Shown: positions 34,690 to 56,300, counted from the stretch's first letter. The stretch: 64,000 bases of DNA from Sphagnum compactum (GCA_965153455.1 OZ234494.1:10106001-10170000); one strand, 5' to 3'. Numbers and translations are program-made. Notes: generated by a model not told the origin, from the letters alone.

Positions 34690-37590
34690 TGGCCAGTTTC
34701 AAATCATATTCTTGTAGCATGAGCACCCATGATACATGTTCTCCTCTCAACTTATTTGATTTCATCAACCATTTTAATGGTTGATGATCAATGACTAGGT
34801 GAAAGAGTTGTTTTACAAATAACACTTGAAATGTGTTATAGCCATACTATTACAAAACATTCCCCTTTGTAAAAACTTTACTTGGATTCATTGTTATTAA
34901 TTGTGGGAACAGTTGGCATATGTGACCACAAATTTTCTCTATTCATCATCCACCTACTTAAATATTGTTCCAAGACCTAACATGTTCCATTTTTATGTAA
35001 TTAGAATGGTCACCCTATTATGGGTCATTCAAGATTGTTATTGAGGTCATTTGGGCTTTGAATTCTTCATAGGCATACCCCTATTCATTTTCCATTGCCA
35101 AGCTTGATCCACCTTCTACAACTTGGTGAATGGGTTGGCAATGATATTGAATCCCTTCATAAATCATTGATAGTTGGTTGCCAATCCCATAAAACCTTGA
35201 ACTTGACTAACATCCATAAGGTGTGGAACGTGTGTAATAACATCAACCTTTGTTTGTTGAACCTTTAGTCCTCCAAGGTACATCATATGACCTAGATATT
35301 CAATCCAATCATAGATGAACTTGCATTTTCCTAGATGGAGCTTTAGTCCATGTGTTTGCAAACATTGAAATACCTCATGCTCCCTCACATAAACACTAAA
35401 GATGATGATATCATTTATGTAACAATGTGCAAAATTCAAGCTTAATAAAATCTTGTCCATGACCTTTTGGAATTTTGTGGGTGCATTTTTAATCCAAATG
35501 GCAAAAACTTCCATTGATAAAGGCAATTTGCCATGTTCATCAATTTCCTAAAATGAGGTCTTCTATTTTTTTATATCCTTAATGGGCAATTGGTGATACC
35601 TTGACCTTAGTCCAACATGTTAAACACCTTGGCTTGCCAAATTGCATCAAAAATCTCTTCAAAAAAGGGCATGGCATACCAATCAAACTTGGTTTGATGA
35701 TTCAAAGGTCAAAAATCCTCACACATGTCTTTTAGTTTAGTTGCCAAAGATGTTCTTTTTGGTCAGCATCATAGTAGTTGACTCATATTCTCTTACAAAC
35801 AACTCTACCAACCCAACTTCCTATAATTCTTGGGTTTTGGATTGGATCAATGATTTTTCCAAGTCAATATATTTGTAAGGGTTTCAAAATATGGGCATAT
35901 CATTAGTCAATTCAATGCAAATTTCATGGCCTTTTAAAGGTCCCAAGTCATTCACATTGAAGGCAAACCCATCTTTGTAAGATCTCAAAACTTGTTCAAC
36001 CTACTTCACTCATTCTCGATAACTACAAGTCCAACTTGTGGTTCCCAATTTTTTTCATAACCATAGCCTTGGGCGTACCAAACTTGTCAATAACAATTGA
36101 TGCATTCACTAGCTAGTTGACTATTGCCATCATCAATAGCTCGTATGGATTGTCCCAACATAAATTTTACTAAATTTTCCATCATTAATTAAAGATCTTC
36201 TTTTGTTTTGAAAAAATCTTCCTTCTGAACAACATTCACACATTATTCATCCCATATTTGCCATGGGTGTTTGCATATCTATTCACCCCCAACCTCTGCT
36301 TTCATCATTTCAATAAGTAAAAAATATTGTGAGACTACATTGGTAGGGGTTATGGAAGATTGTAGGTGATGTTGTTCCGCTATACACAAGTTAATGATCC
36401 ATTTCAAGTAGTTGATGTCCATTGGGTGACCTAACGCCTATCAATGCGATGCCTCACCAATGGGAAATCCCATGGCATGTTCTTGTTTGTCAATAGTGGT
36501 TCCACCAATATGTGTTGGTGATGTATCCCAAACAAGTTTTGGCCCATTGTTTCAAAAAACATGGGATGCAAGAAAGTTAAGCACATTGGTAGGGCAAGTC
36601 ATAGTTGTTTCACTTTATTGACAATGACTAATAGTAGTTTGGACCATCATACTGAATAGGTTATGACAATGTCCCTTTATCCAAAATGGAGTCAACAATG
36701 AGTGGTGGTGGTCTGTGCACTCTATCATGTGCTAGTTTGAATAACTATGATGGCATGAGATTGGTCCACCATAACTATGGCCAATGAGCTTTTGAACCCA
36801 TTGTTACTACACCTAGCAAAACAATAGTTCCAATCTAGAATCTAATTTGTTGGACATTAACCATCACGTTGGCTCATGAATGTCGCATGGAGGGTACATT
36901 TTCCAAAATGTAAGCTAGGGGAGGTGTATGATGTAATTGTAAGTATTGTAATAATTGTAGTACTTGTAGCATCTCCCAAAACAAATCATATTTTGATTAT
37001 GTCTTGCAACTTGTTGCCACGGCCTACCAAAAAATGACCTTGGCAAAGGCCATCCTACTGTGACCAAATGAATAGGGCTTTGTTCCAACAACAAAACATC
37101 TCTTGGCGATGCCTTGAAATAATTGAATTACTAATAGTGGAAGCAATTCAAGACATTATTGAGCAAGGTAAACAACTTGTAGTGAAACATATTGAGCAAC
37201 TTCATCATTGTCAACATAAAGGTATTTTTGCACTTGTATTTCGAGTTGCAACACAATAGCCAATTTGGTGTCAATACCTCCAAACAAGTCAAGTCCACAC
37301 AATTTGCTTCTTTTGGACATTGCCAAATAATGATACTGGAGTCCAAAGGAAATAGGGAGATGATGTATGGCCCAAAGAAGTGGCATCCATTGTGGTCAAT
37401 GGCACAAAGGCCCTTAGCCACACTTTTTGCACATAATGTTATGCAATTTTTTGCAAATCTATTGTGGTGCCCCCACCATTATGCCTCTTTATTAATACCC
37501 AAGGGGACAATTGGAATGATGTCCATTTTTTGTTTTCTACCTCCTAAATTGGAACAATGTCTAATGAAAAAACATTGCCAATCTAGGTGT
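34690..37590 (-). mobile_element. Old decayed MTase-RT-RNase H portion of a related Gypsy element
   Basis: Minus-strand remnants GLDLFGGIDTKLAIVLQLEIQVQKYLYVD (MTase motifs I/II), GWPLP, AYILENV, KNAPTKFQKVMD...CYINDIII...KCKF (RT) and WVLMLQEYD (end of RNase H), in the same order as the young copy. Confidence 0.85.
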
Positions 37591-37594
37591 TGTT

Positions 37595-40500
37595 CACTAC
37601 AATGGACCAAAAATGGACAAATATTTAAAAAAATTATTATTCAACTCATGAAATTTGCATTTAAAATTGGGGTATTTAAAAGGCTACATGTGGATATTTG
37701 AAAATTTTAAATACTAACTAAATGCCATGTAAAAAAAATGAAACTTATGTTTTGCATTATGTTTTTATATCTTGAACTTGTCATATTCCCAATTTGAATC
37801 GTCAAAATTCAAATAATTCATATTAATCTATTTGAAATTCTTGTATTAAATTTGATAATGGGGGTGAAAGCACACTACAATGGCCAAAAAATGTTGTCGC
37901 AGATATTTTTTTCGAACATGTGCAACTTTCAACTTTCACCAAGCCAACATTAAGAGAGGTTTTCATAAATGATATTCAAAATAAGATAGTTCAATTGCCA
38001 AATAATGCAATTGTCAAAGGAAACTACATTTTTTGATTAATATTAAATGATTAAAGAGTATATTTGTGAAAAAATAGATGTTGTCACAATACATTACAAA
38101 GTGAAAATATATTCTTAAAATGATTCAAATAATTACAAAACTTGATGAAGCATTTAGTCATATATTGAATATGAATTGAATGTACCATTTCAATTACAAT
38201 CAAAAAATTTGATTCATAACATGAATTTAGTTAATTTTAAATTAAACTATCAATTCTAGATCTTTTCTAACCTAGTGGTGGGATCAAGTTTGAGACCAAA
38301 CATTGTGAACATCTATTTGTTGGATTATCTAGTGAGGCAAAACATTATTAATATTTATTGTTGCATCATTTGGTGGCCCCCAAATGAAAGTTTTTGTTTA
38401 ATTTTCCAACTTCCAAATGGTCAATTATTAATTTTGGACTTTTCAAAAGTTTGGAATTAATTAAATACATGATTAATGTGATTTCATAAAAAACATGTGA
38501 TTTAATAAGTTTTTCATTTGAACAAGCATAAGTGTGTTGAAAAAGACCATTTTGTTGAAAAATCATTTTCATATGAAAGATGACAAGGCTTATGTTGGAG
38601 GCCTTTGTATCAAAATCCATTTTATATATTTATCAAAATGCTAGATGAAATCAAAGAAAAATTGCCCCAAGATATACCCAAATATACCCCAAAAAAGTAC
38701 ATTTTTTTTGCCTAAAGCGGCCCCCCCATAGTGTGTTTTCACCCATGGACATGCATGGATAGTTTCATGGTCACCCTAAAGAACCAAAACCCATCTAAAA
38801 TATCTCCACCACAAACTAACAATCCCAAAGAATGTTGTGAAACTTGGCCTTTTGTGATTCAATAGCCCCTTTCCTACAAAACATACATGAAGGTGTACAC
38901 TCTTGCCATCTTCAAATTGTCATCCCAATTTGTACAATGTCATTTTTCCTTAGAAATCCAAGGTGAAGCTCATGGGGTATAACATAGTTCCATTGAATAA
39001 CACATTGTATGACACAACATTTGTCACAATGATTTTCACCTTCATAATTGACACCTTCATTTGTGGAGTGATAGAGTTGAAGTTTTATACATAGTGGTTC
39101 ACGAATGACTCTATGAACCTTTCCTAATCATCCCAATGAGGTCTATATATGGAATGGACAAGGCTTTAGGGTAAAAACAAAGTCAAAGGAGCCACCCAAC
39201 TGAGTGGACTCTCTTTAAAACTTCATTTTTGTATGTTTGGAAGATTACAAAAAAAGCATAATAGTTTGGATTATCATAATTTTTTTTTATTAATTTCAAG
39301 GTTTACATGTTCAAAACTTGACATAACCAAAAATGTTTTTGCATGTTCAAAACATTCAAATTTCAAATGGATAGTCCTTATTTTTTTCTACCAAATGTGC
39401 ACCATTCCTTTTGAAAATTGGAAAGGATTTTAACATTGATGATTAGAAAATACAAATAGTTTTCAATCCAAGTAGTTAAAAAAATCAATGTAAATAGTCT
39501 TCAAATGAATCATTGATTCCATGTCTTTTTAATTGGGATGCTTGTTGTTGACTTTGAGCTAGTTGGCTCCTTGGATTTTCTTTAATGAACCCAAGAGCCA
39601 CCATTCACATTTTGAGCATGTTTTATTCAATTTGTTTTGTTACGAAAAAAACTTTGGCAATGTTGATTAAATCAGTTGCAATAAAATGGCATCACACAAT
39701 TTTTTTTCAAATTCATGGTCCAAAATTTTGTACCAAAATTGGATTATTTATGCGTTCATGATTCCTTGAGTCATGTTAATCAACCTTTTCATTCAAATAT
39801 AGGTCTCTTGTAAATTTTCATGGGGCTTACATTGAAACTTTTACAAATTTGCAACTTTTTCATGTTGGTAATTCCTTCACAAAGTGTGAAACAATTCTAC
39901 ACAATACGATTGAAAGCAAATTGTGGCCCTTGTGTGTTGGTTGAAGGGTTTATTTATGTATTAATTGAGGGACTTGCCTACATATTAGTTGAAAAACTTG
40001 CTTGTGCATTAATTGAAGGCCCAACATTGCCACCTCAAGTTGAAGAACTATTATTACTATAAGGAATTTGCATATTAATGACTATTTTTGTCACGACCCT
40101 AGCCTTGGGCTCGCAACCAAGGCAAAAGCATGGAAAGGTGCGGGCTGAGAGTGCAATTCAGGAGTCACATTTGCATTCCTGAAAGTGTGAGAAAGTTTGA
40201 GGGAATGAACCCACACACTCCTAAATGGACTCCCATTTTGGGAATTAGAATCCCTATGGAGTCTTGAATTTTCAGAAAAGGATTTTAGGGGTCAAAATTC
40301 ATTGGATTAAAGAGTTTCTTATATCATTGGAAAGCTCTTGAGACGAAAATGTTTAAAATGGGCTCACATGACCCATTAGAGTACTTATAACACAAGTTAT
40401 GGCTGAAAAAAGGGTCGGGAATTAAAGTGCCAATTTGATTCCCAACCATTAAAAATCAAGAATCACCTTGAATTACATGCGTTCAGTTGACGTGCCACAT

Positions 40501-42818
40501 ATAGTTGGAAAGTTCTCAACAAGGGCTAGAACTTTGCTTAAGACCTCACCTTAATCGAAGGTCTGCACAAGAAATTATGAACATCAAAAGATTTGGGAGT
40601 CTTAATTTTTGGAATTTCGGGACTCCCAATTTGCGAGTCCCATGACAAAATAACATTTGGGTGCAGCCCTCATGACTAATCACAAATAATACTATAAAAA
40701 GGGAGGTGGTGGCTTCCCCCAAGTCCGGGCCGTGGTGAGTCTTGTGAACCCACGTATGCTCATAGTTCATTTGTGCACCAAAAGTGTTCCAACTATGCAT
40801 TAACCAACTTGTTGTTTGGTTTGTGTAGGTTCGTGTGAATAGTTGACCCATTTGTCATTCGTTCTAGTCCCCATCCCGGAGCTTTAGCACGTCCTTATTA
40901 CCTTCGAAGTGCTACAAGCTAGGAAGTGTACCCCAATTATTTCTTCCATTGTTTTCACATTCGGATTCCCATTCCATTCTTTCAAGGAGTTTGGGGGTGT
41001 GTCATTTTTTTTAGTTGTAAATGATTTTTTAAAGTTGTGAATGCCACATGTAATTTCTACTAGTGTTTAATTGCCTTGGACAAGTTGCACAAAATTTTAG
41101 TTGCAAAAGATGTGATGGGGCACCTAATTGAAAAATTAATCACATCAAAGTATGTTTAACACCAACTTTTCATCCAGCCAACATGACATGGTCATGTTTA
41201 CAACTAAATTTTGTAATTTCATATGTTTATATGGCATAATCATTTGTGATTAGTTTTATAACTAAAATATGGCTTAAACATTTCAATTTTTTTACTGCTA
41301 AAATGTTGACACGTGACAAGTTCCAAATTGAAAAAATGGCATCATGTGTCCTGCTTAAATTAGCCTAAGTTAAACCACCTAACCTAAAAGCTTAGAGGCT
41401 AACCTAACATGGGTTAAGTAGGTTAACTAAATGCATTCAAGTAGGTTGCAAGTGTGAGGATTTGAACCTTCACCTTCACATTAAAAATCAAGATTTTAAT
41501 AATTACATCATTTTTTCAACAATTGATCATTTTTGTCATTACATCATTATGAACATTTTTTCTTATTCTATTTATGTGACATAACCTACATTTTCTAATT
41601 ATTTAATTACCTTCGACCACTGTAAATTATTATAAACTATTTAACCCTAAATCATTTTAAGTTATTTTTTACTATTCTATCTTAGGTTATTCTAGGTTAT
41701 TCTACCCTTAAGTTGTAGATTCTACCTTAAGCTATTCTTGGCTATTATTCTACAAACCTTGAAAAGGTTATTTCTATTTAACTCCAAATGGTGTGCAAAA
41801 CATATAAGGTGCAACTTATTGAAATATATATATAATTAATTTACTTAAATGTAAATAAGGTGCCTATAATTCATTATGAGGATATACTTAAAAATTATCT
41901 AATTCTTATTTTAAGATATACCTAAAATCTGTTCAAAATATGCCATTATTTCATAGCGAGCTAAAAAAATCCCTTTATTTCAAATGTTTTTAAAAATATA
42001 TAAGTGGTGATTTCTTCAAGCCTTGGGATATTTTAGGCTATTGTAGATTATTTGAATTTAAGTTATTTTAAGTTGTTCTACCTTAGGTTACTTAATTTGG
42101 GTATTTTACTTTAAGTTGCTCTTCATTATTTTTGGTTATTATAACCTAAGCTATTATTGATTATTTTAGGTTATTCTACTCTAGGTTATTCTAAGTTATT
42201 TTAAATTATTTTAAGTTATTATACTTTAAGTATCCTAGGACATCTATAAATATTTTAATATAATTTGCTTGAAGTTATTTTAGGTCATTCTACCTTAAGT
42301 TAATCTTGGTTATTTTACCTTGCATTATTTTAGGCTATTTAACCATAGTAAAAATGTCCATTCATAAAACTACATTATTGTAGTAGTGTGCTTAAACTAT
42401 TTAAGGTACATAATGGTGTACCTAAAGGTTACCCAAACTATTAAAGGTACATAGGGGCTACTTAGGTTGAAGCTAGTTGATGCATGCATTAACATATATA
42501 AATTTACATGTATATAGTCGTAATTCAAATTGCATTGAATGCCACATGTTCAATCACCTATAATTACATTATTAATCACAAAAATAATTAAATTTTCATT
42601 TGATGTTAAACACCATTAGTTGTAAATGATATGAATGCATGTTTCATCTTCATTTTCATCCAAATCACATGTAGTTGCAAATCATAATCACATGTGTGAC
42701 TACAAGTCGTTTTTACCATGGTGCCATGTAGGGTAATTGCATTGGTAGTCACAAAAATGGTTGATTTGGACACAAGTTGTAAATACATGGGTTGGTATGG
42801 ACATGATTCCTTGTAGTG
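37595..42818. mobile_element. Nested CACTA-like / AT-rich insertions splitting the old Gypsy copy
   Basis: CACTACAATGG at 37595 and 37873, and TAGTG ends at 42388 and 42818. The interior is AT-rich with short tandem TTATTCTACCTTAAG-like repeats (~41640-42350). No matching 3-bp TSD found, so boundaries are uncertain. Confidence 0.4.
40089..41004 (+). mobile_element. Solo LTR (TGTCAC...GTGTCA), same family as 46285-47104
   Basis: TG...CA ends. Reverse-complement similarity to 46285-47104 (e.g. GGTGGTGGCTTCCCCCAAGTCCGGGCCGTGGTGAGTC). Flanks ATTTT/TTTTT. Confidence 0.75.
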
Positions 42819-42849
42819 TACTTGCAATAGTTGTTGATGCACATGGAGT

Positions 42850-43200
42850 CATAATGCCCCATGTGATGGAAACATAATTTGGTGATTAGTATACTTGTCA
42901 TTATTTGATCTACTCTTTATGGGCATGCTAGAATTCACGATATTTGTCCATTGGCAACCCTTAATAGTGTTGGGAAAACCCCTTCCATGCCATGAAAGGT
43001 GTAAACATATGGGGATTGGAAATCTATTACATATCATAATAGGTATCAAACTTTTGGATGAAGTTGTTGAGTTTGATGGTGCCAATTGCATTAGAAAACC
43101 AACATGGCCCATTGGTGGTTCTAAACATTTCATCCCTATCCCATAATAATGGAATAACAATGCAGTCTAGCCAATCTTTCAGAATTGGATCTAAATTCCC
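42850..43200 (-). mobile_element. gag remnant of the old related Gypsy element, into which the young copy inserted
   Basis: Reverse strand GGCACCATCAAACTCAACAACTTCATCC...GATATG...GCATGGAAGGGG aligns to 44926-45030 (GGCACCATCAAGTTGGAGGACTTCATTC...GATATG...GCATGGAAGGGA). Confidence 0.8.
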
Positions 43201-43398
43201 TAAAAGATGTTGATGGCATCAATGGTCAAAATCACGCCCCTCAACTTGTATACCCAAATGTTGATGTTGTTTATGCTTGAAAAAAGCTCATGACACTTCT
43301 ATAATGGATGTTAAACTGGTAACATTAGGTGCCCCAAATGAATCTTGTATCTTGTTGTCCAAACCTTAATTCCTAAGCAATGTTGAACCTATGGGCTT

Positions 43399-43713
43399 TG
43401 TCATGACCATATGTGTGTTAGCTATAACATATAGTGTGCTATGGTAGCAAGTAGTGCCTACTTAGGGTTTTTAGGTTTAGGGCTAGAGGAAAGTGGCTCT
43501 TCTGGTAGGACCCACCCTCATGTTGTGAGTGGGGGTATAAAGTGTGAGAGAGGGCTCAGTTGAGCCTAAAGCGTTGGGAGTAATTGGAGTTAGTGGAGCT
43601 TTGAGCTATGGTGTCCCGTTAGCATTGGCTTAAATTCTCTAAGTGGAGTGGGCTTGGTTTGACTGTATGTGTTTACATCACGAGTTTTATGATAGTAGAT
43701 CTTTCTCGTGACA
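43399..43713 (+). repeat. Terminal repeat A1 (315 bp)
   Basis: Direct repeat of 52928-53260. TGTCATGA...TCGTGACA, TATAAA at 43536-43541. Lacks 18 nt present in A2. Confidence 0.95.
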
Positions 43714-43718
43714 TTTTC

Positions 43719-43739
43719 ACTCAAAAAACTATGTTTTTT
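43719..43739 (+). promoter_or_regulatory. Putative self-priming primer-binding site
   Basis: Starts 5 nt after A1 and does not begin with TGG. CAAAAAACTATGTTTTTT (43722-43739) is 17/18 complementary to A2 53087-53104, which lies just downstream of the TATA box. Confidence 0.7.
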
Positions 43740-44816
43740 GGGAGTAGTTAAACCGTGGGGGTTTTGTGATCTTGCTCTCTGGTTGTGTGGCCGAATTGGG
43801 AGTGGGTGGTGTCAAAAGGAGCGCCTTGGCGAGAGCTTTTCAACACACCAAAGAATGTTGGATTTTGTTCAGCGGATCAAAAGTTATGATCATTTGAAGT
43901 TGCTAGTTTAGGGTTTGACAGTTTTTAGTGACGGTTTACCAGCAACGTTAATTTCTCAGATAAGTAGAAATTTCCTTGAAAAAAATTGCTGAAAATTGGT
44001 AGGAGTGTAGCTAGAAAGTCGATCTACAATCTGACAAAGACAGATTGTGTTTTCATTGAACGGTTTATACGTTATGTTTGTTTTTGTGGTGATGTTTTTT
44101 TCTGGTTTGTGCACACCTAGTGCAGAAGCACTGTCGGATTTTTAGCTAAATAACTAGGGAAGATCATGTGCTGCAATTTTTTGAAGTTGTTGCTTGAGGG
44201 CTGAATTACATATGGGAATTGTTTGGGATTTTTTTGGTGGAGCCAATTGGGAGTATTGACCTTCGAAAGTTCTCAAGTTTGTGTAGATTTATGCCCAGGT
44301 TTTTTTCAGCAGTTTTTCATAGGTCATATCTCGGCATACAAACCTTTTTTTCAGTCGAGTTTTGGAGAGAAGGAAGATCTAGTTGTCCTTTACATTCTGG
44401 CCGAAGTAAATTGGCATTTGGTGTAGGAACGGTGGAGATATGGTTGTTTGAGTGCTCGCTGCCCAATTTCGCAACTTTTGGCTATGGCGGATTAAGGATT
44501 TCGCCGGAAATTGAGCTTTTGGCTAGTGGGGAGCACATTTTTTGACTTGTTGTGGTGGGCCGGTTGGACGAGTTGAGCCGCTACTCAGCTAGGTGGTTGA
44601 GTTGAGTATTCGTTTCTGGTAGCAAATCGGGCACGAGGTCGACGGTATTTAGTGGTGATTCAATTTGGGTACTGGGTTTGGTGATTGGGTCATCACGGAG
44701 CAGTTTGGTGGTCCTGTGAGGGACCATGGTGGAAATGGTGGAGTTACACGTAGTGGGTTGAGGTATTGACTACCTTCCCCCACATCATCGGTTGTTGAGG
44801 AGGACGAGGTTATCAT

Positions 44817-47552
44817 GAATAACAAGTTTTCCATATTACCGTCTAGTATTGCGGCCCCATTGATTTGGGATATGGACGGGGGTTCTGGGGCCATGAAGGG
44901 CCCCCGACGTTACTCAGGTGCAGTGGGCACCATCAAGTTGGAGGACTTCATTCACGAGTTTGATTATTGGTGTGATATGTAGATGTTACGTAACGCCAGA
45001 TTGTTCTCACCCTTCTTGGCATGGAAGGGATTGTTTCAGCACTTGGAGGGTCCTCCGATGGATGATTATCATGAGTTTCGGAGAGATCATGCTACTGAGA
45101 TTGAGGAGTGGAGGCAGCATTGGTCTCCATCCTATGTATCTATTACTCACGGTGGTGTTGTTAGTGATGGTATTACTACACCGTCTACTCCTAGTACGAG
45201 CACACATGTTATTCCCCCACCTCTATTTAACCCTATCACGGAGTTCTTTTTGAGGCTGAAGAAGAACTACCAGGCGGTGAAGACGGAAAAGTTGAAGAGT
45301 CTTCAGGAATTTGAGCGGAAGATTAATGAGAGTCTTCGCGAGGCATACACTCGTATGCGACGGTTGATTGCAGTTACCCAGGGGGTGACGGAGGCTCAGG
45401 CATTTCAATTTTGGTATGGATTCTAGATAAGGAGTTGCAACAGAGAGCACGTGATGTGACTCTCATGAGTGACGATTTTCCCACATCGGCCCATGTGTTT
45501 GCTTTGTCTGAGAAGATAGAGCTTAACATGGTGGAGGAGAGGGTGGTGACATCTGGATTCAATAGGGATATAGTTACTACTTCTCGTGGACAGCAGTCCA
45601 CCTCACAACCTCGTACTAGTGGAGGTGGGAGTCGTGGAGGTCAGGTACGACCTCAGTCAGGTTCTGGAGGGACGGGTGCACAAAGACCATTGCCTTCATT
45701 CGCTAGTCAACAGCAAGGACAGTCTTGTTGGACATGTGGTGGTGCTCATATTCGGAGGGATTGTCCACAGGAGAGTGGAGGACAGACTTTGGCTGATGGA
45801 TCTCAGTCGGCACAAGTTTAATGTGATAACTGTGGTCGGGTCAGCCACCCTCGTGAACGTTGTTTTGACCTTTACCCAAAATTGAGATTAGGTCGTGGTG
45901 GAGCGGCTCAAAGAGGTCGTGGTGGTAGAGGTGGTAGAGGTGGTGGGGGTGGTAGAGGTACACCAACACTTAGGGCACCTCCCATGATCACTCCTCACCC
46001 TACGACAGAGGCAGCTATGGCTGCTAGGATTGAGCAGTTGGAGCAAAGGCTTGCTACCATGGCAAGTTTCCAACATCGATCACATTCCAGAGGTGAGGTT
46101 CCCACATCTTATGGGGGAGATGATCTCTTTTATATGGCTAGTGTAGCACAAATTGAGGCATCCGTTGCAATGACGAGAGGCGTCACTCGAGCTCGGAGCC
46201 ACATGGGGCAATTGTGGGGTTGGATCCACAGAGGGGTGAAGCTGGTAGACAGGCTAGGCTTCCCCAATCATTCTTGTTGTCTGATGACGCGCTCCCCAAG
46301 TCCCTTGTTGAACCCACTTGAAGGTCCAACTACGTTGAGTTGCGGAAAGTTGGGACTTGAGGGCCGCTCCCGACTTCCAGCACTAAAGAGGGGTAGAGGG
46401 GCGTGCTAGAAGTCCCGGGATTAGACTAGGAAGAGGACAAGCTTTTCACCTACTCAAATCTACATCAAAACCAACCCCAAGTTGGTTAGAACTCATTCTG
46501 CACCCTTTTGGTGTTGGGACAAGCCACGGGTTAACTCGGACTCACTTGACTCACCACGGCCCGGACTCGGGGGAAGCCACCACCTTCCCCCATATAGTAT
46601 ATTCTGTGTCTCACCGCGGAGGCTACATCCGAATGGCTCTTTTTCCCGGGACTCCCAAGTTGGAGTCCCGAAACTGTCCCGGGTTGGAGTCCCGGAACTT
46701 TGGGAGCTCATATCTCCCGGCTTCGACCTCTGATTGGAGTGAGGTCTCAACCAAAGTTGTAGCTCTCCTCGAGAGCTCTTCAAAACCATGTTGCATTCCT
46801 TCAGGCAACGTCGGGAAAGGGTCGATTCCCGACTTTTAGTGGTCGGGAGTCAAACTGCCAGTTTGACTCCCGGCCCTTCTTTTGCCCATAACTTGGGCTG
46901 CAGATGTCCAAATGGCCAATGCGAGGGCATTTTAGACATTTACACTTCAAGACCTTTCCATTTATATAAAGAACACCTCAAGGCAAGGTGTTTTGACCCC
47001 TTGTAATCGCTTCTGAGTTTTCGGGAGTCCCGGAGGACTCCAACTTCCCACTTTTGGGAGTGTGGGCTTCACCCTCACACTTAGCCAGAAGTGGGGTTGC
47101 GACATTTGAAGTGGTTAGGACTCCTTCCATGGTTCCTACTCCGCCTATTGAGCCAACAGTGGGGCCAACAGCATCGACATCACATGTAGTGGACATTGAT
47201 GTATCATCGAGTGCATTGTCGCGGATGGTGACTTCAGTGTTGGGATCCCCAACATTTTCGGCTAATGATTTGATGGCGTCAGGAGTTGACTTAACTCGTG
47301 TATTTCGACTAGCAGCCACATTGTGTGAACCTGGGAGTGTTGTTGCTACAAGTGCCGAGGTGTGTGAGGGTGTTGATGTGGGGCAACTTGTGGCAGGGGA
47401 TGTTGTTGTGGAGCAATTCGTGGTATCAGGTGTGGATAGTCCTTGGCAGGCAGCGGCGATTAAGATGGATGCATTACAAGCTCGACCAGCCATCGATCGT
47501 GAGAGGCTTACACCTAGTGTATGTATGTTGGATAATCGGAGTGGTATTTTCT
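44817..47552 (+). pseudogene. gag region (two CCHC zinc knuckles, RGG-rich tract), interrupted by a solo LTR
   Basis: Capsid-like ...KLKSLQEFERKINESLREAYTRMRRL; CWTCGGAHIRRDC and CDNCGRVSHPRERC; RGRGGRGGRGGGG. In-frame stops and frameshifts. Confidence 0.85.
46285..47104 (-). mobile_element. Nested solo LTR with 5-bp TSD
   Basis: Minus strand TGTCGCAACC...GCGCGTCA. Flanks TCTGA (46280-46284) and TTTGA (47105-47109). Removing it restores the host frame ...PQSFLLS-EVVRTPSM.... Confidence 0.9.
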
Positions 47553-47554
47553 AG

Positions 47555-47878
47555 TTGGTGAGTCCTACGGGCCAGGTGTATAGACCAGATCGGGTTTTGT
47601 TGGATTCTGGTGCCCAACCCTTGATGTTGGGGAAGGCAGCATGTATTGGTTTGGGTATTCGGAGGTCAGAGCTTGAGCCGTGCCCATTCCAAATTCAGAC
47701 ATCACTTGGTGGAACCAGTGATAGGTCTAACTTCATGACACGTGAGAGATTGTTGGTGCAAATGAAACCGAATCATGTGACAGATAGCTCTAGGTTGGGA
47801 GTGACTGTTATTGTTACAGCAGCTGAGTCGTATGATGTACTAGTTGGAGGTGTCGTGTTGTATCCGATGGGTTTCTAG
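47555..47878 (+). pseudogene. Retroviral-type aspartic protease domain
   Basis: VLLDSGAQPLMLG active-site motif and YDVLVG C-terminal motif. Confidence 0.9.
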
Positions 47879-48329
47879 ATGGATTATTGGACAGAGACAA
47901 CGACTTATCGACCTGGTTGGCAGTCTGGGGATGGACGGATGAGCCACGTGCCTGTGAGATTTATTTCTGGGGTTCGACCAGGAGGGTCTCCCCCAGAGGT
48001 GTTCGCATCAGTTGCTGGTTTTAGTGGAATGGTCACTTGGCCAGGTGACTTGTTGGAGGGCAACATTTCAGCCATTGACACTTCGGTCTACGAGGATATA
48101 GAGGAGGTTTCTAGCTTTGTTGCAGCAGTGTCCTCCTCATTGGATGTTCCACTTTGGCGTTTGAGTGGGGTGTTACGGCAGGATGCCGATTGTTTGGTAT
48201 CACAGGCTTGGCGTGAGGCTTTTGTGCCTGTGGAGGAGGAGGAGGTTCCACAACGGACTCCTATTTTTCGTCCTGTTGGGTTGTCTCCATTGGATACTAC
48301 ACCCATTGCGTGGGAATATCCTTCCGAAG

Positions 48330-49265
48330 GTATTTGCGTGTTGGATCTATTTGGTGGGATCAGCACTGGTTTGGCAGCAGTGCTTCAAGTGGGTATTCTA
48401 GTTTGGAAGTACTTTTACGTGGAGAAAGATGAGACCGCGAGGAGGGTTTCATCGCTCCATCTTGCATTATTGATGCGGCGATATCCTGAGTTGTTGCCGA
48501 GGTCGGCTATTTGAGGATATCAGCGAGCTTTGCCATCAAACATTGCATTGTTTGGGGCGCAAGACTTTGCGAGAGTTGGTCCTATTAATTTGGTGATTGC
48601 TGGATGGCCATGCCAGGGTCATATTTGGGCTGGTCGTGGTGAGGGATTACGTGACCCTCTCGTATGTTTTGGGAGATGTTGCGGGTGTTACATCATCTTC
48701 AAACACATCAGGCACGTGTTCCCGCGTACATTCTGGAGAATGTACCTTTGTTGGGTGATTCTAGGTCTCATGTGATGGCAAGTGTACACCAAATCTGGTC
48801 TTGGATTGGACCAACGGTTTTATTGGATGCAACGAGGGTTGGCTCACGTGCTCATCGTCCCCGATTGTGGTGGACGAACTTGTTGTCGAGGGAGGTGTTG
48901 AAACGGGCATATGAGACAGTACCACGATCTTCTCAACTCATAGTGGATAGTATCTTAGATATTGGGCGATGTTCTCAGGTGGTGAAAGTTGTTGATAGGT
49001 CACCCATGGCAGTGGTGAATTGAGTGGGACAGCCTAGGATGGCGTTACCCACATTTGTCAATTTTCCAGCATCACATGCCTATAGAGAGGGTGGTCCTGG
49101 GCTTGTATGGGATAGTTCTTTGCAGTAATTGGTGGAGCCCAACGTCAATGAGAGAGAGTGTGCAATGGGTTTCTTACAGGAGTGACATTTGTCCCTTTTA
49201 TTTCCGAGGCTTCACGTCAACACGTGTTGGGTCAAGCTATGGACCTGAATTGTTTGACTTGGATT
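48330..49265 (+). pseudogene. C5 cytosine DNA methyltransferase domain, DNMT3-like, embedded in pol
   Basis: Motif I VLDLFGGI, II YVEKD, IV IAGWPCQG (catalytic Cys), VI YILENV, VIII LDATRVGSRAHRPRLWWTNL, IX ERECAMGF and X RQHVLGQAM, in canonical order. A few stops and two frameshifts. Confidence 0.92.
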
Positions 49266-49569
49266 GTTAGCCTTGGTATGGCTGAGCAGCGTCGGCTCAG
49301 AGCCACATTTGTAGTAGTTACACCTCTTGTGAGCTCGCTGTCCACCGTGACGGTAGAAGCATCGACTGGGGGCGAGAAAAGTTGTACATTTCATCCTTGG
49401 AGTACATGGGATGTGTTGGGAGAGCATGTGAAGGTTGTGGCCCATGCTGTTGGAGGAGTTTGTTGCTCCATTGGTGTTCCATTGGGTGACTTGGAGGAGT
49501 GTGTGGCTTTTCCCAAGGTTTTTGCATAGCAACCCATGGCGTCGTCCTCTTCCTCTAGTGTGTCTATCG

Positions 49570-50960
49570 AGGAGACTTGGGAGCCTTTGATGGGGCCCAA
49601 GCTAATAGGAGGAGAAAGGCGACGGTTGATGCAATTCCTAAGAGCTTACAGGAGTTGTTTTGCCTTTAGTATGAAGGAGTTGGGTGCTTTGATTGGACTT
49701 GGTATACGGATTGAGTTGGCTAGTGACACGCCAATCTTCCGTTGTCCTTATAGATATAGTGATATGGAGAGGGACCTGATTCGGAGTCAGACGTTGGATC
49801 TATTAGAGGCTAGATTAGTGGAGTTGTCGCATGGTGAGTATGCATCAGCCACTGTCATGCCTGCCAAAAAGGATGTACATGGCAACTATTCAGATAGGCG
49901 GATGTGTGGAGACTACCGTCCTATCAATTGGCAGACTAAGTTCGATAAGTATGCCATGCCTACACCTGAAAAGATCTTGATGTGTGGGACATGCGAAGGT
50001 TTTTAGTACACTTGATCTTCGAGCAGGGTACCATCAGTTGCCGATTTGAGAGGAGGACAACGCCAAGACCGCATTTTGGGGCATCAACTCTCACGGCAAG
50101 GATTGTTTGTATCAGTGGAAGTTCTTACCCTTTGGGTTGAAGAACGCGCCTGCCGAGTTTCAACGTGTGATGGATAGGATCTTAGCAGGGTTGGATTTTG
50201 TCCGGTGTTATATCGATGATATTGTGGTATATAGTGATATCGTGGAAGAGCACCAAATTCATCTACAAATTGTGTTTGAGCGGTTGAAGGCTCATGGTCT
50301 TCGTTTACATCCTGGGAAGTGTAAGTTTTTCCAGGAGAGTGTGGAGTATCTGGGTCATGTGATCTACACAGGTGGTTTGGGAATGCAACAAGCCAAGGTG
50401 GAGGCTATTGCACGTATTCCGCGTCCCACGGATGTGAGTAGGGTTCGTGCTTTCATGGGATTGACGAACTACTATCGCAGGTATGTCAAAGGCTTTAGTG
50501 CGATGGCAAAGCCTTTGAACATGTTGAAGTTGGATCAGGAGTGGCAGTGGGGTGATGAGCAGGAGCGAGCTTTTGTGGAGCTCAAGACTAGGTTAGTTGC
50601 AGCTCCCATCTTGAGGAGACCTATTAAGGGGCGTCCATTCCAGCTACACATTGATTGGAGTATGTTGGGACTTGGAGCGGTGTTGACACAGTGTGATGAT
50701 GAAGGGAAGGAGTTTGTGGTGGCCTATGCGAGTCGTTCGAACAATGCAGTGGAGTCACGCTATAGTTCTTACGAGGGAGAGTGTTTGGCAGCGGTGTGGG
50801 CTGTTGCACACTTCAGGTGTTACTTGTTTGGCACACAGTTTACCCTTGTCACTGATCACTAGCCGCTCAAGTGGTTGATGGAGTTCGATAAATTTACAGG
50901 AAAGCTTGCACGGTGGGCTCTCATCTTACAGGAGTATGACTTCCAGGTGGTGCATAAACC
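49570..50960 (+). pseudogene. Reverse transcriptase and RNase H
   Basis: RMCGDYRPIN, LPFGLKNAPAEFQR, YIDDIVVYS, KCKFF, LHIDWS, YSSYEGECLA, TDH, WALILQEYDF. Confidence 0.97.
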
Positions 50961-51399
50961 TGGAGTTACAAACCTCGATGCCAATGGATTGAATCGAAAC
51001 CCATGCACTAGCCAAGAGGATAATACTGGACTAGATGGCATGGCGAGGTTGATGAGGAGATGGTGCCAGGTTGGCATGCATCGGCCTTTTTGTGCTTGTT
51101 GGGTGTGGACTCTAGTATGGAGGGCCACGTGACATCTTACTCTAGTCAAAGGGTAGATGGCCAGTCTTCAGATCCTGAGGTTGGGGATGGTAGCATCGGT
51201 CACCATGATGTTCATGATGATACATTAGTGTTGGAGTTTTTACGAACCAGTATGGTGTCAGGCATGGTGAGTGCTAAGGAAAGAGACCGTGTTCTCCAAC
51301 GAGCTAAGAGGTATCGGTTGGAGGGGACACATATACTCCGAGTGTGGGAGGATGGTAAGGTACGGATTGTACCACATCCAGACCAGAGAAGGCGTATTG

Positions 51400-52655
51400 T
51401 GCGGCATGCCCATGAGGAGTTGGGTCATTTTGGAGTAAAGCGGACATATAGTTTACTCCTAGGTCAGTATTGGTGGCGTGGTATACACACCGATGTGCAA
51501 TGATTAGTGTCACATTGCATGGTTTGTGATAGGGTGAGGGCATCGTTCAATACCCCTACACCACAGTTACACCCCTTGCCTATTATGGGGTTGGGTTATC
51601 GCTGGAGTTTGGACTTTGCGGGACCATTACCATTGACGGTATGGCACAACAAATATGTGTTGGTGATGGTGGAGCACTTCTTTAAGTGGATTGAATTGGT
51701 GCCATCCCCTGACAAATCCAGCGAGGGAGTAGCGTATGCATTCCTTAATAGGGTGTTTAGTCATTTTGGTGCACCAGCTGAAGTGTTGACCGATCAAGGT
51801 ACGGAGTTTCAGGGTGAGTTTCAGGTCTTGTGTGACAAGGCGTTGATTGATCACCGAACCACGTCTCGAGATCATCCAGAGGCAGATGGTTTAGCTGAGC
51901 GTGTGGTACAAACGGTGAAGAGGGCATTGCGCAAATATGGCTTACAGAAAGGCCACCTAGGGGATTGGGATATTCAGTCACCATGGTTGGCCATGGGATA
52001 TCGATTCAGTCGTCAGGCATCCTTGGCTTCCTTCTCACCTTATTTTCTATTGTACGGCCCAGATCTAGACTTGCCAACAACGATTCGTCGTGAGTCTAGT
52101 GAGGTGGTGAACCTTGATGACCCGGAGATGTGGTTGAGGGTGTGTTCTCAACGTGAGCTCTTTCGAAGAGTTATGCCAGTAGCGTTTGAAAACCTTGCCA
52201 TTGTTCAACACAGGGATACATTGCGATATGCGATTATCCGGGGTGGAGGTTATCGACCATTGATTCGTAGGTTCCATGTGGGGGACTATGTCTATTTGCA
52301 GCAGACTGCACCAACGACATTGGATGTAATGGCAGGCCGCACTATCTTACGAGTGGGAGAGGTGTTAGCTTCTGGAGTTCTCATGTTGGAGGGTCGTGAT
52401 GGTGTTGTTTGGAAGGACCATGTGCGTAATTATGCGCCATGTCACCTCCCAAATGTGGATGGTATAGTTGACCCAAGTTTGGCAATGGTACGGGCCGGCT
52501 TGAGGTGTATGTTATGTGGGTCTAAAGGTGGAGCAGCCCATATGTTGGTGTGTGATAAATGTTCTAGGGGTTGGCACATGGCGTGCATGACTCCACCTAT
52601 GGATGTTGTTCCCGTTGGACGGTGGATTTGTCCTCGTTGTACTTTGGAGGGGTAG
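51400..52655 (+). pseudogene. DDE integrase with C-terminal PHD finger
   Basis: HHCC (HEELGHFG...CMVC), D (LDFAGP), D (TDQG), E (GLAERVV). C4HC3 PHD CMLC...CDKC...WHMAC...WICPRC at ~52506-52640. Confidence 0.95.
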
Positions 52656-52805
52656 ATGACTTGATCTTCACATGGTATGGATTGCAGATGGGCGACTAAC
52701 GATGGGGCAACATAGCACCCGGCCTTTTGATTTGTGCACCCGCGAAGGTGTATAGCATGTAGAAGATGTATAAGGCTACCTGGAAGTTAGAGGGACCTAA
52801 CCACC

Positions 52806-52821
52806 AGCTAGGGGGGCGAGT
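52806..52821 (+). promoter_or_regulatory. Polypurine tract
   Basis: AGCTAGGGGGGCGAGT immediately precedes the TG of repeat B1. Confidence 0.8.
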
Positions 52822-53380
52822 TGTGGTACACATGTATTTGTGTATGTTCTCGTCCATGTTATGTGTTTGTGTGTGTATGTGAGTATGGTATGTCAGCGAT
52901 GTATGTTGTATGTATTCACACGACAGCTGTCATGACCATATGTGTGTTAGCTATAACATATTGTGTGTTATGGTAGCGAACAGTGCCTACTTAGGGTTTC
53001 TAGGTTTAGGGTTAGAGGAGAGTGGCTCTTCTAGTAGGACCCACCCTCATGTTGTGAGTGGGGGTATAAAGTGTGTGAGAGGGCTCAAAAAACATAGTTC
53101 TTTGAATTGAGCTTAGAGCGTTGGGAGTAGTTGGAGTTAGTGGAGCTTCGAGCTATGGTGTCCCGTTAGCATCGGCCTAGATTCTCTGAGTGGAGTGGGC
53201 TTGGCTTGACTGTATGTGTTTGCATCACGAGTTTTATGATAGTAGATCTTTCTTGTGACATTTTCAGTTGTGGTACACATGTATTTGTGTATGCTCTCGT
53301 CCATGTTATGTGTTTGTGTGTGTATGTGAGTATGGTATGTCAGTGATGTATGTTGTATGACGATATGTATTCGCACGACA
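52822..53380 (+). repeat. 3' terminal repeat block: B1 (52822-52925), GC, A2 (52928-53260), TTTTCAGT, B2 (53269-53380)
   Basis: B1 and B2 are near-identical (TGTGGTACACATG...CACGACA; B2 has 8 extra nt). A2 matches A1. Confidence 0.95.
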
Positions 53381-56300
53381 GCTTAACCTAACCTTAATTC
53401 TAAAGCACCTACACCCATTAAGAACATTCCACATGTTCAAACAAAAGTGGGATTCATTATGAACATAACAATTATGGTCTATTGGCCATCAACCTAATTC
53501 CACCATCACAATAATCAATGGAACACTTTGGTGATCAAATCCAGGAATGTCCACAATAGTCCCAAAATAGATTACAACCTAACCCTTCCCACTAATTCCC
53601 AACCTTGTTTTTGCATTCTTAAGGTTTTGTGCTTTAATGAAGAAAATGCACAAGTTGAACTTGTTTGGTTAACCCAAATGTGGTATTGTTTGGGTTCACA
53701 CATTTGTTACAAGATTACAAGGTATATAACACAAGATTTAAAACTTGGGTCCCACACACTCATTATAGAATTACAAGTGCCAACTAAACCATATGTTCCC
53801 CACACCTATACCTTCACAAATGTGTCAACAAACAAGGTGGAAAATAGATGTTCCCCAATTATAACACACAAGTGGGAATGAAATTTTTCATACCTCATGA
53901 ATTCTTAGTTTTGTAATTCATGTTTGAAAATTACAACAAAACACTTAAATAGAACATCAAAAGTCAACAACATGACATTCCATGGGTGTTAATGATGCAA
54001 CATTCTACCACTTGTGGGTTACAATTATTGATGTTTATTGACATCAACATTAAATTGCCCAAAAACTGGTTTCACATACACCATTGCCCCATGTTAGTGA
54101 AAAAACCCTTAGAAATTTTCCTATTTGAATGGGCTAAACCTCCCACATGTGTAGGATGGCCTACAAATAGAAACTTGGGCATGAATTCAAAACTTGTTGA
54201 CATGATGTGGTTCACATTCAAATACAATAACACATTGTTGTGTGTTATATGCTATTGGCCCACTTGAATGAAAATTTGAATTGAACAATGGCACACCTTT
54301 TTTAAGTCTAAAATCCAATTTTCAAAATTAAAAATTGAAATTTAATTCAATTTCCAAAGACCAAATCTATTTTAAAATCAACGTTTTTCATACCTTAAGA
54401 ATAATCATTATGAAATCACCTCCATAAAACCTTCGTCATTGAAGGTTTTCCAACAATATGAAGAACATGCCTCAATCTATTTAAATTTTTTAATTTCAAT
54501 ATATCGAATTTTCAATGAAAACATTGTTCAATATTCAATATTCCTATATTATAGGTCTAAACAGTATGCAACCATATTGGTGCACCTCTCCTCATTGAGG
54601 GCTTTTCAGTTGGTATCAAGAGTGAGATGGGGGCTACCGTGGTTTGGGAAATTTCAATGTGACAAAAAAAGAAAAAACAAACAAACAAACAAACAACCGT
54701 CCTTGATAAATAGATGCCAAATTTTCACATGATCATGTAAGTGAGAAAAAAATCAAGCTTCTAAATCATTAAGATGGGGCATTAATGTTTGTGTGTGTAA
54801 CCTATAGACACACTTCATTCTTATTTTTATGAAAAGACAAATGTTTTTGGGAATGCACCTTTTCATATATGAGTTATGAAGTAAAACTTTGGGATATGAA
54901 TAATGTCGCCCTTAGGATATATAGTGATGTTCCTGGATTGCACAAGAACATAAGGGGGGCATCACTATTTATTTATCATTGAAAAAAAATGAAATTGTTT
55001 CAATTGTTGCTAAAAGGAGTTTAGGAATCTAACATCCAAAATCTCTTACCTATGAGTGATGTTTCACATTTTTCTATCAAACATTACATTATTTTTAAAG
55101 TGAAATTATGCAATTTCAAATATAATTTTTCAAAATTTCATCATATGAAGAATAACTTTGCAAAGTACACTTTTTGTTATGTATTTGTAATAATAACCCA
55201 ATGGTTTGGACAATAAATAGTTTTTCACAAGTTGGGAGTTCAATTTTCAATAATTTTGACAAAGAATAATATCTATTTTGTCCAACTAGACCTTTTATGA
55301 ATTATTTTGTGCCAAACATTAATTGTAGTTACAATAGCCCACCTAATTGTGCACTCACCCAATGTAAACTTTTTTTATGCAATGATTTTTCAAATCATGG
55401 TGTTGTTGGGAAAATATATTAGGTGCACATTTTGGATACATGTTGCCACCCTTCATTCTTGAGTAGAATTGTTACACCATTTTTTACCTAACCTTTTACA
55501 ATGCATTTTGATTGAATAATATAGACTTAAATGGTTTTACATTTACATGTCCCGTACTAAACACTTACACTTATACTTACATGGATGTAGATGGCCCTTG
55601 TACACTTCCATGGAGTGCAAGTCCTAAACCATATACACACACAACATTGAAAACTACATCTATGAATGAAAAGAACATCATCCACATTTAACTATCTATA
55701 GAGGTGGCTAAATTGCAATGGCCATGCCAACTGTATCTTGAGAGTGTCCAAATTTTGGAAGCTTATATGTTGGGAATGTCCAAAGTGTTGAACCATTTTT
55801 TTTGTGATGGGAAAATCAACAAGGCCCGTCACAAAAAAAAAAGAGAAAAAAGCGAAGGCATGCACAACTAATCAAGAGAAACCAAAAGGTATCACTAATA
55901 CCATATTGGGACCCCACATTCAACCTTGCAGTTCTGTAATGTGTGATTTTGGGAGATGAAATGGAGTCTTTTGAACAATTATTCAAATTGAATTTATTGG
56001 ATTCAGCAAGTGACCTATTTCCAAACGCTTCCAAACTATCCTCTTCAATGAATTATGTGACTCAGCACCCACCACTGAAAACTTGTTATATTCCACGTTG
56101 GTAACCTATCTTGCAAACCCTCTCGCTTCCACCTCACACTACCAAGGTAATTACTTCTATAAGTGGGTAAGTATCCGAGGTAAGTGAGTCCCAAATGCAA
56201 ATGAGTACTATGGAGATAGGTAAGTAAGTAGGCAAGGCACATGGTGGCGACTAGGTACATAGATACTAGATCCATGGGGATGGTAAGGGCATAGGTAACC

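Follow-up and report, generated by a model that had tools for sequence, protein, structure and literature searches.

A DNMT3-type cytosine methyltransferase domain in a degraded Gypsy-type retroelement of the moss Sphagnum compactum and its relatives in bryophytes

Cytosine methylation is the main means by which plants silence transposons, so that the usual roles are reversed when a transposon carries a de novo methyltransferase of its own. Such a case was raised by a stretch of 64,000 nucleotides from Sphagnum compactum (GCA_965153455.1 OZ234494.1:10106001-10170000; hereafter the window, from whose first letter all positions are counted). An earlier note, made from the sequence alone, had recognised at 48330-49265 a DNMT3-like cytosine methyltransferase fused into pol between protease and reverse transcriptase (RT). 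What kind of enzyme is this, does it belong to the element in which it lies, and what might it have done there? We are highly confident that the region is the DNMT domain of a degraded bryophyte Gypsy-type element (type 1 as defined below), in which a first open reading frame, ORF1, encoding Gag, protease and DNMT, is followed by a stop codon and by ORF2 for RT, RNase H, integrase and a PHD finger.

Positions 48338-49526 on the plus strand, the strand of all features below unless stated otherwise, hold a complete and non-permuted C5 cytosine methyltransferase domain that is broken by three in-frame stops and two frameshifts. In stop-to-stop ORFs of this strand the motif strings are spread over three frames. 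When two intact relatives, P0009 and P0010, were compared with the window by tblastn, the whole domain was aligned (48053-49526, frames 2, 1 and 3) at about 80-86% amino acid identity, with a combined E value of 1.9e-173 for P0010. The motifs, which carry the names and numbers in general use for C5 methyltransferases, follow one another in the canonical order from I to X that the earlier note had given: LDLFGGISTG (I), YVEKDE (II), GWPCQG (IV, with the codon of the catalytic cysteine at 48611-48613), ILENV (VI, 48736-48744), GSRAHRPRLWWTNL (VIII), ERECAMGF (IX) and LGQAMDLN (X). They are interrupted by three stops (TGA at 48512-48514 and at 49021-49023, TAA at 49126-49128) and by two deletions, of 4 bases after 48657 and of 1 base after 49166. 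The DNMT3-type domain proper takes up 48338-49345; 49346-49526 encode the C-terminal tail of ORF1, which is predicted to be disordered (in the P0010 model, residues 337-398 have a pLDDT below 50). Both the catalytic cysteine (PCQ) and the glutamate of ENV are present in the window copy, and the intact metagenome copies L001 and L004 have kept every motif.

The earlier note had proposed PF00145 as a check. None of the five DNMT pieces of the window matched this family at E<=0.1 in a Pfam search because each piece is too short, but four of five near-intact relatives scored 31.9-35.6 bits, above the curated cut-off of 22 bits. Relatives at about 80-86% protein identity that exceed this cut-off come from Sphagnum.

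The domain sits within a Gypsy-type retroelement of 9,982 bp (43399-53380) and is colinear with the protease upstream and the RT downstream. The element begins with an LTR-like repeat, A1 (43399-43719, 321 bp, TG...CA). The Gag part of ORF1 (44872-46281) is frameshifted: residues 1-488 of the Marchantia protein P0025 aligned to it by tblastn in three frames at 57-68% identity, and strings for two CCHC knuckles were seen in its ORFs. Nested within the element, an unrelated repeat of about 826 bp follows at 46282-47107. The aspartic protease (47555-47878, LLDSGA) was read from its ORF and from an alignment with the protease regions of P0025 and P0017, and the relatives P0260, P0261 and P0287 carry PF13650/PF13975 in precomputed protease annotation. 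A linker of about 150 residues (47879-48337), conserved with P0009 and matching no Pfam family, leads to the DNMT. Beyond the end of ORF1, RT and RNase H occupy 49530-51030 in a broken ORF2 (PF00078 at 5e-25, PF17919 at 2.4e-31 and PF17917 at 2.2e-24; 80-84% identity to Marchantia P0017). They are followed by the integrase core (rve, 51504-52505, PF00665 at 1e-11) and, at the integrase C-terminus, by a PHD finger (52506-52640, PF00628 at 4.5e-10).

The order of RT, RNase H and DDE integrase (Pfam RVT_1, RT_RNaseH, rve), together with short target duplications, is that of Ty3/Gypsy elements. The ends of the element are unusual. We looked for two identical LTRs forming both ends and found the arrangement A1...B1-A2-B2 instead. 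A2 (52928-53266, 339 bp) is a copy of A1, 88.5% identical with gaps counted. It is flanked by B1 (52820-52927, 108 bp, preceded by a purine run) and by the terminal copy B2 (53267-53380, 114 bp), which ends the element with ...GACA. The array B1-A2-B2 was present in all six related copies having a 3' flank, and B was found ahead of A1 at none of 11 5' ends. The duplicated target GCTT was read by eye at 43395-43398 and 53381-53384. Duplications of 4 bp, likewise read by eye, border four of four complete copies (the window element, L056, L047 and L074). Direct repeats of this kind recall DIRS/Ngaro elements, which use a tyrosine recombinase; no recombinase family was matched in the window by Pfam, and the integrase is of the rve type.

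The window copy is dead. It is inactive because of the stops and frameshifts in the DNMT, the frameshift in Gag with the nested insertion after it, and the divergence of its A repeats. Contigs from all four RNA-library runs join 46279-46282 to 47105-47111 and so skip the nested insertion. The insertion itself is rich in short palindromes, has about 200 times the RNA-library contig depth of the rest of the element and gave no match in Rfam; a repeat related to it is found on the minus strand at 40287-40741. The insertion may be a non-autonomous element, small and abundant.

Two compositional features of the element may be mentioned here. Its coding strand has an excess of G over C, with a GC skew of +0.18 to +0.26 in the window element (43399-53380) and in the metagenome copies L001, L004, L039 and L075; being seen in the near-intact L039 too, the skew looks like a trait of the family and not a product of decay of one copy. 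The CpG observed/expected ratio is 0.61 in the element (about 0.6 in its subfamily), 0.28 in L039 and 0.23-0.37 in the surrounding window, figures that do not separate self-methylation from methylation by the host.

The element is not the only one of its kind in the window. On the minus strand, head-to-head with it, lies a second element (34694-43134) with the same Gag-protease-DNMT-RT layout, far more diverged and degraded. Its DNMT remnant (36249-37302) is about 41% identical to P0009, is riddled with stops and no longer has the PCQ stretch. This one window thus contains two or more old lineages of the family. Within the Gag region of this minus-strand element there is an AT-rich degenerate repeat array with a period of about 10-25 bp (41618-42355). 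A short RNase H/integrase-like fragment on the plus strand (31635-32579), 41-60% identical to P0017 and P0055, represents a third related element.

How is the DNMT joined to the rest of the coding region? The earlier note was right that the domain lies between protease and RT, but the two are not fused. The DNMT closes ORF1 (Gag-protease-DNMT) as its C-terminal domain, and RT, RNase H, integrase and PHD finger form a separate ORF2. In the window ORF1 ends with a TAG followed by CAA CCC ATG in frame with ORF2 (49527-49538), and this context is conserved across copies. A stop was present at this point in 53 of 55 copies (TAG in 37, TAA in 16), the remaining two sharing a 1-base deletion; CAA CCC follows directly in 49 of the 55, with ORF2 in frame. 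Among the type 1 proteins in our domain alignment, 17 of 17 end no more than about 100 residues past the DNMT domain. Diverged lineages keep the same arrangement, with TAG CAA CCA in L039 and TAG CAA CTA in L075, neither of which has an ATG nearby. These two sequences fit UAG-CAR-YYA, given in the text of PMC3542737 as the readthrough signal of tobamoviruses.

Since the in-frame stop-CAA is conserved and fits this signal, ORF2 is probably made by leaky readthrough of the ORF1 stop. It could instead be translated by termination and reinitiation at the ATG two codons past the stop, or from a separate RNA. Nearly all copies of the window's subfamily have stop-CAA-CCC-ATG-G, a good initiation context, and reinitiation at this ATG is possible in that subfamily. 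As a general explanation it seems unlikely to us: L039 and L075 retain the signal with no ATG nearby, the two ORFs stay in frame, and RNA-library contigs run unbroken over the junction (for example 49395-49888) with no sign of splicing. Readthrough therefore remains the preferred reading.

The second question concerns the kind of methyltransferase. In a phmmer search of PDB sequences with P0010, DNMT3A/B/C accounted for 29 of 31 matches. The other two were a chain titled 'DNA methyltransferase' (4onj/4onq), which we take to be tobacco DRM. A profile built from 34 diverged domains, 28-43% identical to P0010, matched DNMT3A/B/C at 2.7e-23 to 2e-16 and, at 1e-14 to 1e-11, 4onj/4onq and four chains named DRM2. 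In these DRM-type chains the match is confined to profile positions 69-202 and lies at the C-terminal end of the chain, the part expected to match in a permuted enzyme. Weaker matches were M.HhaI (about 1e-8), M.HaeIII and DNMT2 (about 1e-6), and DNMT1 appeared neither in the PDB sequence search with P0010 nor in the search with the 34-domain profile. An AlphaFold model of P0010 computed from that alignment had a mean pLDDT of 84.3, with residues 1-336 mostly above 90. When it was compared with the PDB by Foldseek, all listed matches down to rank 50 were DNMT3A/B/C, with a target-normalised TM of about 0.8 for the catalytic-domain chains of DNMT3.

The claim of the earlier note that the domain is DNMT3-like and not a permuted DRM therefore agrees with three rankings, those of the sequence search, the profile and the predicted fold. 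DRM, in which motifs VI-X stand ahead of I-V, was also considered as a candidate and is ruled out by the I-to-X order in the window and its relatives. Judged by similarity and by a model, and among solved structures, the domain appears closer to DNMT3 than to DRM, DNMT1/MET1, CMT, DNMT2 or the bacterial enzymes. In the Protein Atlas a PF00145 cluster from Streptophyta came nearest, ahead of two phage clusters, a result that we treat as a lead only. A homodimer prediction for two copies of the DNMT domain returned 'no answer' with a score of 0.00; run as it was without controls, it speaks neither for nor against binding.

It might be thought that a single copy full of stops and frameshifts is just what would be left of a host gene fragment captured once and then decaying neutrally. 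This explanation is almost certainly wrong, because the same domain occupies the same place in 80 metagenome loci and recurs both in named proteins of Sphagnum and liverworts and in 207 cluster representatives at E<=1e-30. A search with the window DNMT piece gave 60 matches among proteins of Sphagnum, Marchantia, Calypogeia and Riccia, most of them with PF00145. Relatives in Sphagnum troendelagicum, S. tenellum and S. fallax are about 60-90% identical to this piece, those in the liverwort Marchantia polymorpha 60-71%, and those in the liverworts Calypogeia fissa and Riccia sorocarpa 60-70%; relatives in Marchantia paleacea and Closterium sp. were found with the profile search. In metagenomes 91 stretches encode a relative, and the 80 loci were taken from among these. 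A HMMER scan of 1.84 billion cluster representatives gave 2,857 at E<=1e-3, the 207 above being those at E<=1e-30; many of the representatives are polyproteins of 1,000-3,400 residues. The land-plant lineage of such elements suggested by the earlier note is thus real, and it is a multi-copy family of Sphagnum and liverworts.

Two domain orders occur among these relatives. In type 1 the DNMT stands at the end of the Gag-protease ORF, and in type 2 between RNase H and integrase. When six of the long polyproteins were searched with Pfam, five had the order RT, RNase H, DNMT, integrase, in some cases followed by a PHD finger. Named examples of type 2 are P0194 and P0234 from Haematococcus lacustris and P0225 from Tetradesmus deserticola, besides many environmental proteins. 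In a tree of the 34 DNMT domains, a single branch (SH-aLRT 99) separated 16 type 2 rows from 17 type 1 rows; one partial Closterium row was left out of this tree, and most of the environmental type 1 rows are seen as ORF1 only. The remaining row on the type 1 side, P0291, is a protein of 455 residues with a type 1 DNMT labelled at NCBI as a Candidatus Obscuribacterales MAG. Because it nests among eukaryotic retroelement copies, it probably stems from eukaryotic DNA that was assigned to a bacterial genome during binning.

The integrase and PHD finger of the window element align with those of the type 2 algal protein P0089 in the same position (43% identity over 383 amino acids, E 7e-98). These data lead us to infer that green plants have a single old Gypsy lineage bearing a DNMT, and that the DNMT module changed place once within it. 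A PHD finger at the integrase C-terminus is shared by bryophyte and algal forms (window 52506-52640; P0071 and P0089).

Was the methyltransferase kept by selection? The sign that points most strongly to long-term constraint on catalysis is the invariance, in 34 of 34 diverged domains, of the catalytic cysteine, the ENV glutamate and several other positions. Retention of the catalytic residues, on which the earlier note had made its reading depend, thus holds for the diverged domains as well as for L001 and L004. These two are the only loci among the 80 with an intact full-length DNMT. Within the window's subfamily the signal is muddied by decay after insertion: pairwise dN/dS of the DNMT (210 pairs from 21 frameshift-free copies) had a median of 0.86 at dS<0.05 and was about 0.5 at higher dS.

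The ratio of nonsynonymous to synonymous variants (N/S) in the DNMT was 2.02 for variants shared among copies and 3.84 for singletons (Fisher p 0.0014; 32 copies), with 18 shared stop codons contaminating the shared class. These stops show that dead copies had undergone duplication, or that orthologous dead copies were sampled, so that the 'shared' class includes inherited decay. For the RT the corresponding values were 0.85 and 2.50, and in the mid-protease and integrase regions, for which there were few copies, shared and singleton variants did not differ in N/S. In this subfamily the DNMT is thus under modest constraint, less than the RT.

There is a hint that members of the family are transcribed. 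Contigs of four RNA libraries (moss/plant metatranscriptomes, two of which look like one data set) covered the element, at an identity of at least 88%, in 29-30 of 30 bins; such contigs may include DNA and do not show strand or level. The metagenome locus L039, from a diverged lineage, is near-intact: an ORF of 957 residues is followed by one stop, a DNMT ORF of 438 residues, the conserved TAG CAA CCA and an ORF2 that continues for at least 766 residues to the end of the contig. This lineage is a candidate for recent activity.

What could a retroelement gain from a methyltransferase placed in this way? Leaky readthrough of the ORF1 stop would give rise to the ORF2 products, while the DNMT, being encoded in ORF1, would be made in amounts like those of Gag. 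It could then be packaged with Gag into the particle and released by the protease, and the freed enzyme might methylate cytosines in the element's own new cDNA or in the DNA of the insertion site. The PHD finger of the integrase might read histone tails and thereby choose or hold the site. Methylation of cDNA or of the insertion site was also proposed for their DNMT elements by de Mendoza et al. in the text of PMC5890265. We offer this sequence of events, from Gag-like amounts and particle entry to release by the protease and methylation, as a tentative one, argued from the layout and from analogy; it is a real possibility, though distinctly more likely to be wrong than right.

Its main rival is action on RNA, or no activity at all: the DNMT might be kept to methylate RNA, or as a module that has a structural role or binds DNA, with no part in DNA methylation. 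In the text of PMC5890265 a retroelement DNMT of Klebsormidium produced no methylation in yeast, a result that de Mendoza et al. call inconclusive, and they raise RNA methylation for a LINE-borne DNMT. A pseudo-enzyme would not be expected to keep the cysteine, the glutamate and other motif positions without exception in 34 domains, however, and in structure the domain is nearest to DNMT3A/B/C, which act on DNA, with the tRNA enzyme DNMT2 scoring far lower. This alternative is in our view quite improbable. Methylation of DNA, with the reservations just made, remains the reading that we prefer.

One may go further and picture the bryophyte Gypsy-DNMT3 element as a living, self-contained epigenetic toolkit. 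In such an element a DNMT made at the level of Gag would pre-methylate the cDNA in the particle, RT and integrase would be supplied through the leaky stop, the PHD finger would pick the chromatin, a DIRS-like replication would end in integration by a DDE enzyme, and the DNMT module would have moved once between two Pol positions as green plants evolved. We consider this full picture unlikely.

The statement in the earlier note that DNMT retrotransposons had been reported from dinoflagellates and a charophyte alga was accurate: the text of de Mendoza et al. [quoted passage not shown] In passages of later work DNMT3 is said to be embedded in retrotransposons 'in streptophytes' (PMC12344493), and a preprint speaks of 'streptophytes (Gypsy-DNMT3)' (bioRxiv 2026.05.21.726589). 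The words Marchantia, Sphagnum, moss and liverwort are all absent from the main text of PMC5890265, and a search of full-text literature turned up no description of bryophyte retroelements with a DNMT, which supplements and figures may nonetheless show. The kind of element is therefore already known from a streptophyte alga, and the moss and liverwort elements extend it to land plants. To the existing description are added the placement in ORF1 with its leaky-stop context, the two domain orders, the PHD finger of the integrase and the split repeats with target duplications. The two orders, the leaky-stop layout and the combination of split direct repeats with a DDE integrase can serve as markers for classifying such elements. 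The only characterised streptophyte case belongs to an alga that is difficult as an experimental organism. With copies in the genetic model Marchantia, and in Sphagnum, for which transcripts may exist, land plants would allow tests of methylation of the element's own cDNA, of its effect on silencing and of steering of insertion by the PHD finger.

How, then, does the moss element compare with known systems? The catalytic domains of mammalian DNMT3A, 3B and 3C are its best match in sequence and fold and have the same motif order. Identity to them is only 19-23%, however, and the moss domain has a longer insert between motifs VIII and IX and neither PWWP nor ADD on its chain. Chromoviruses are Gypsy elements with a chromodomain on the integrase. 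They share with the moss element the fusion of a chromatin-reader domain to the integrase C-terminus, but the reader of the moss element is a PHD finger, and it also carries a DNA methyltransferase. The type 2 elements of green algae have a homologous DNMT (32-39% identity, profile E down to 1e-156) and a homologous integrase with the PHD finger in the same place; in them the DNMT lies between RNase H and integrase in one Pol ORF, whereas in the bryophyte type 1 it ends ORF1. The split direct repeats, with A1 at the 5' end and B1-A2-B2 past the coding region, are the same as those given in the text of PMC4157794 for PAT/Ngaro tyrosine-recombinase elements, from which the moss element differs in that it has no tyrosine recombinase: it encodes a DDE integrase, and its TG...CA ends are bordered by target duplications of 4 bp.

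The closest counterpart is KnitGypsy-Dnmt3 of Klebsormidium nitens, with which we compared the moss element on the basis of the text and a figure legend of PMC5890265. It too has a non-permuted DNMT3-type domain in the Gypsy-type polyprotein of a streptophyte, and it too combines DIRS-like repeats with Gypsy-like domains. The two might nevertheless have gained their DNMT independently and not form one family by descent. In the text of PMC5890265 the algal DNMT is placed 'into the Pol polyprotein ORF', whereas that of the moss element ends the Gag-protease ORF, after the protease and directly before the conserved stop. Further, no Klebsormidium protein appeared among the 54 rows of one profile search or the best 120 of the 205 rows of another, which is weak evidence since both searches scored only the 8000 candidates sharing most words. 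The unusual pairing of repeats and domains common to both argues against separate origins, as does the span of the present DNMT clade, which already takes in chlorophytes, a zygnematophyte (Closterium), liverworts and Sphagnum, and we think independent gain unlikely. The hosts differ: KnitGypsy-Dnmt3 resides in an alga and the present element in a land plant, a bryophyte.
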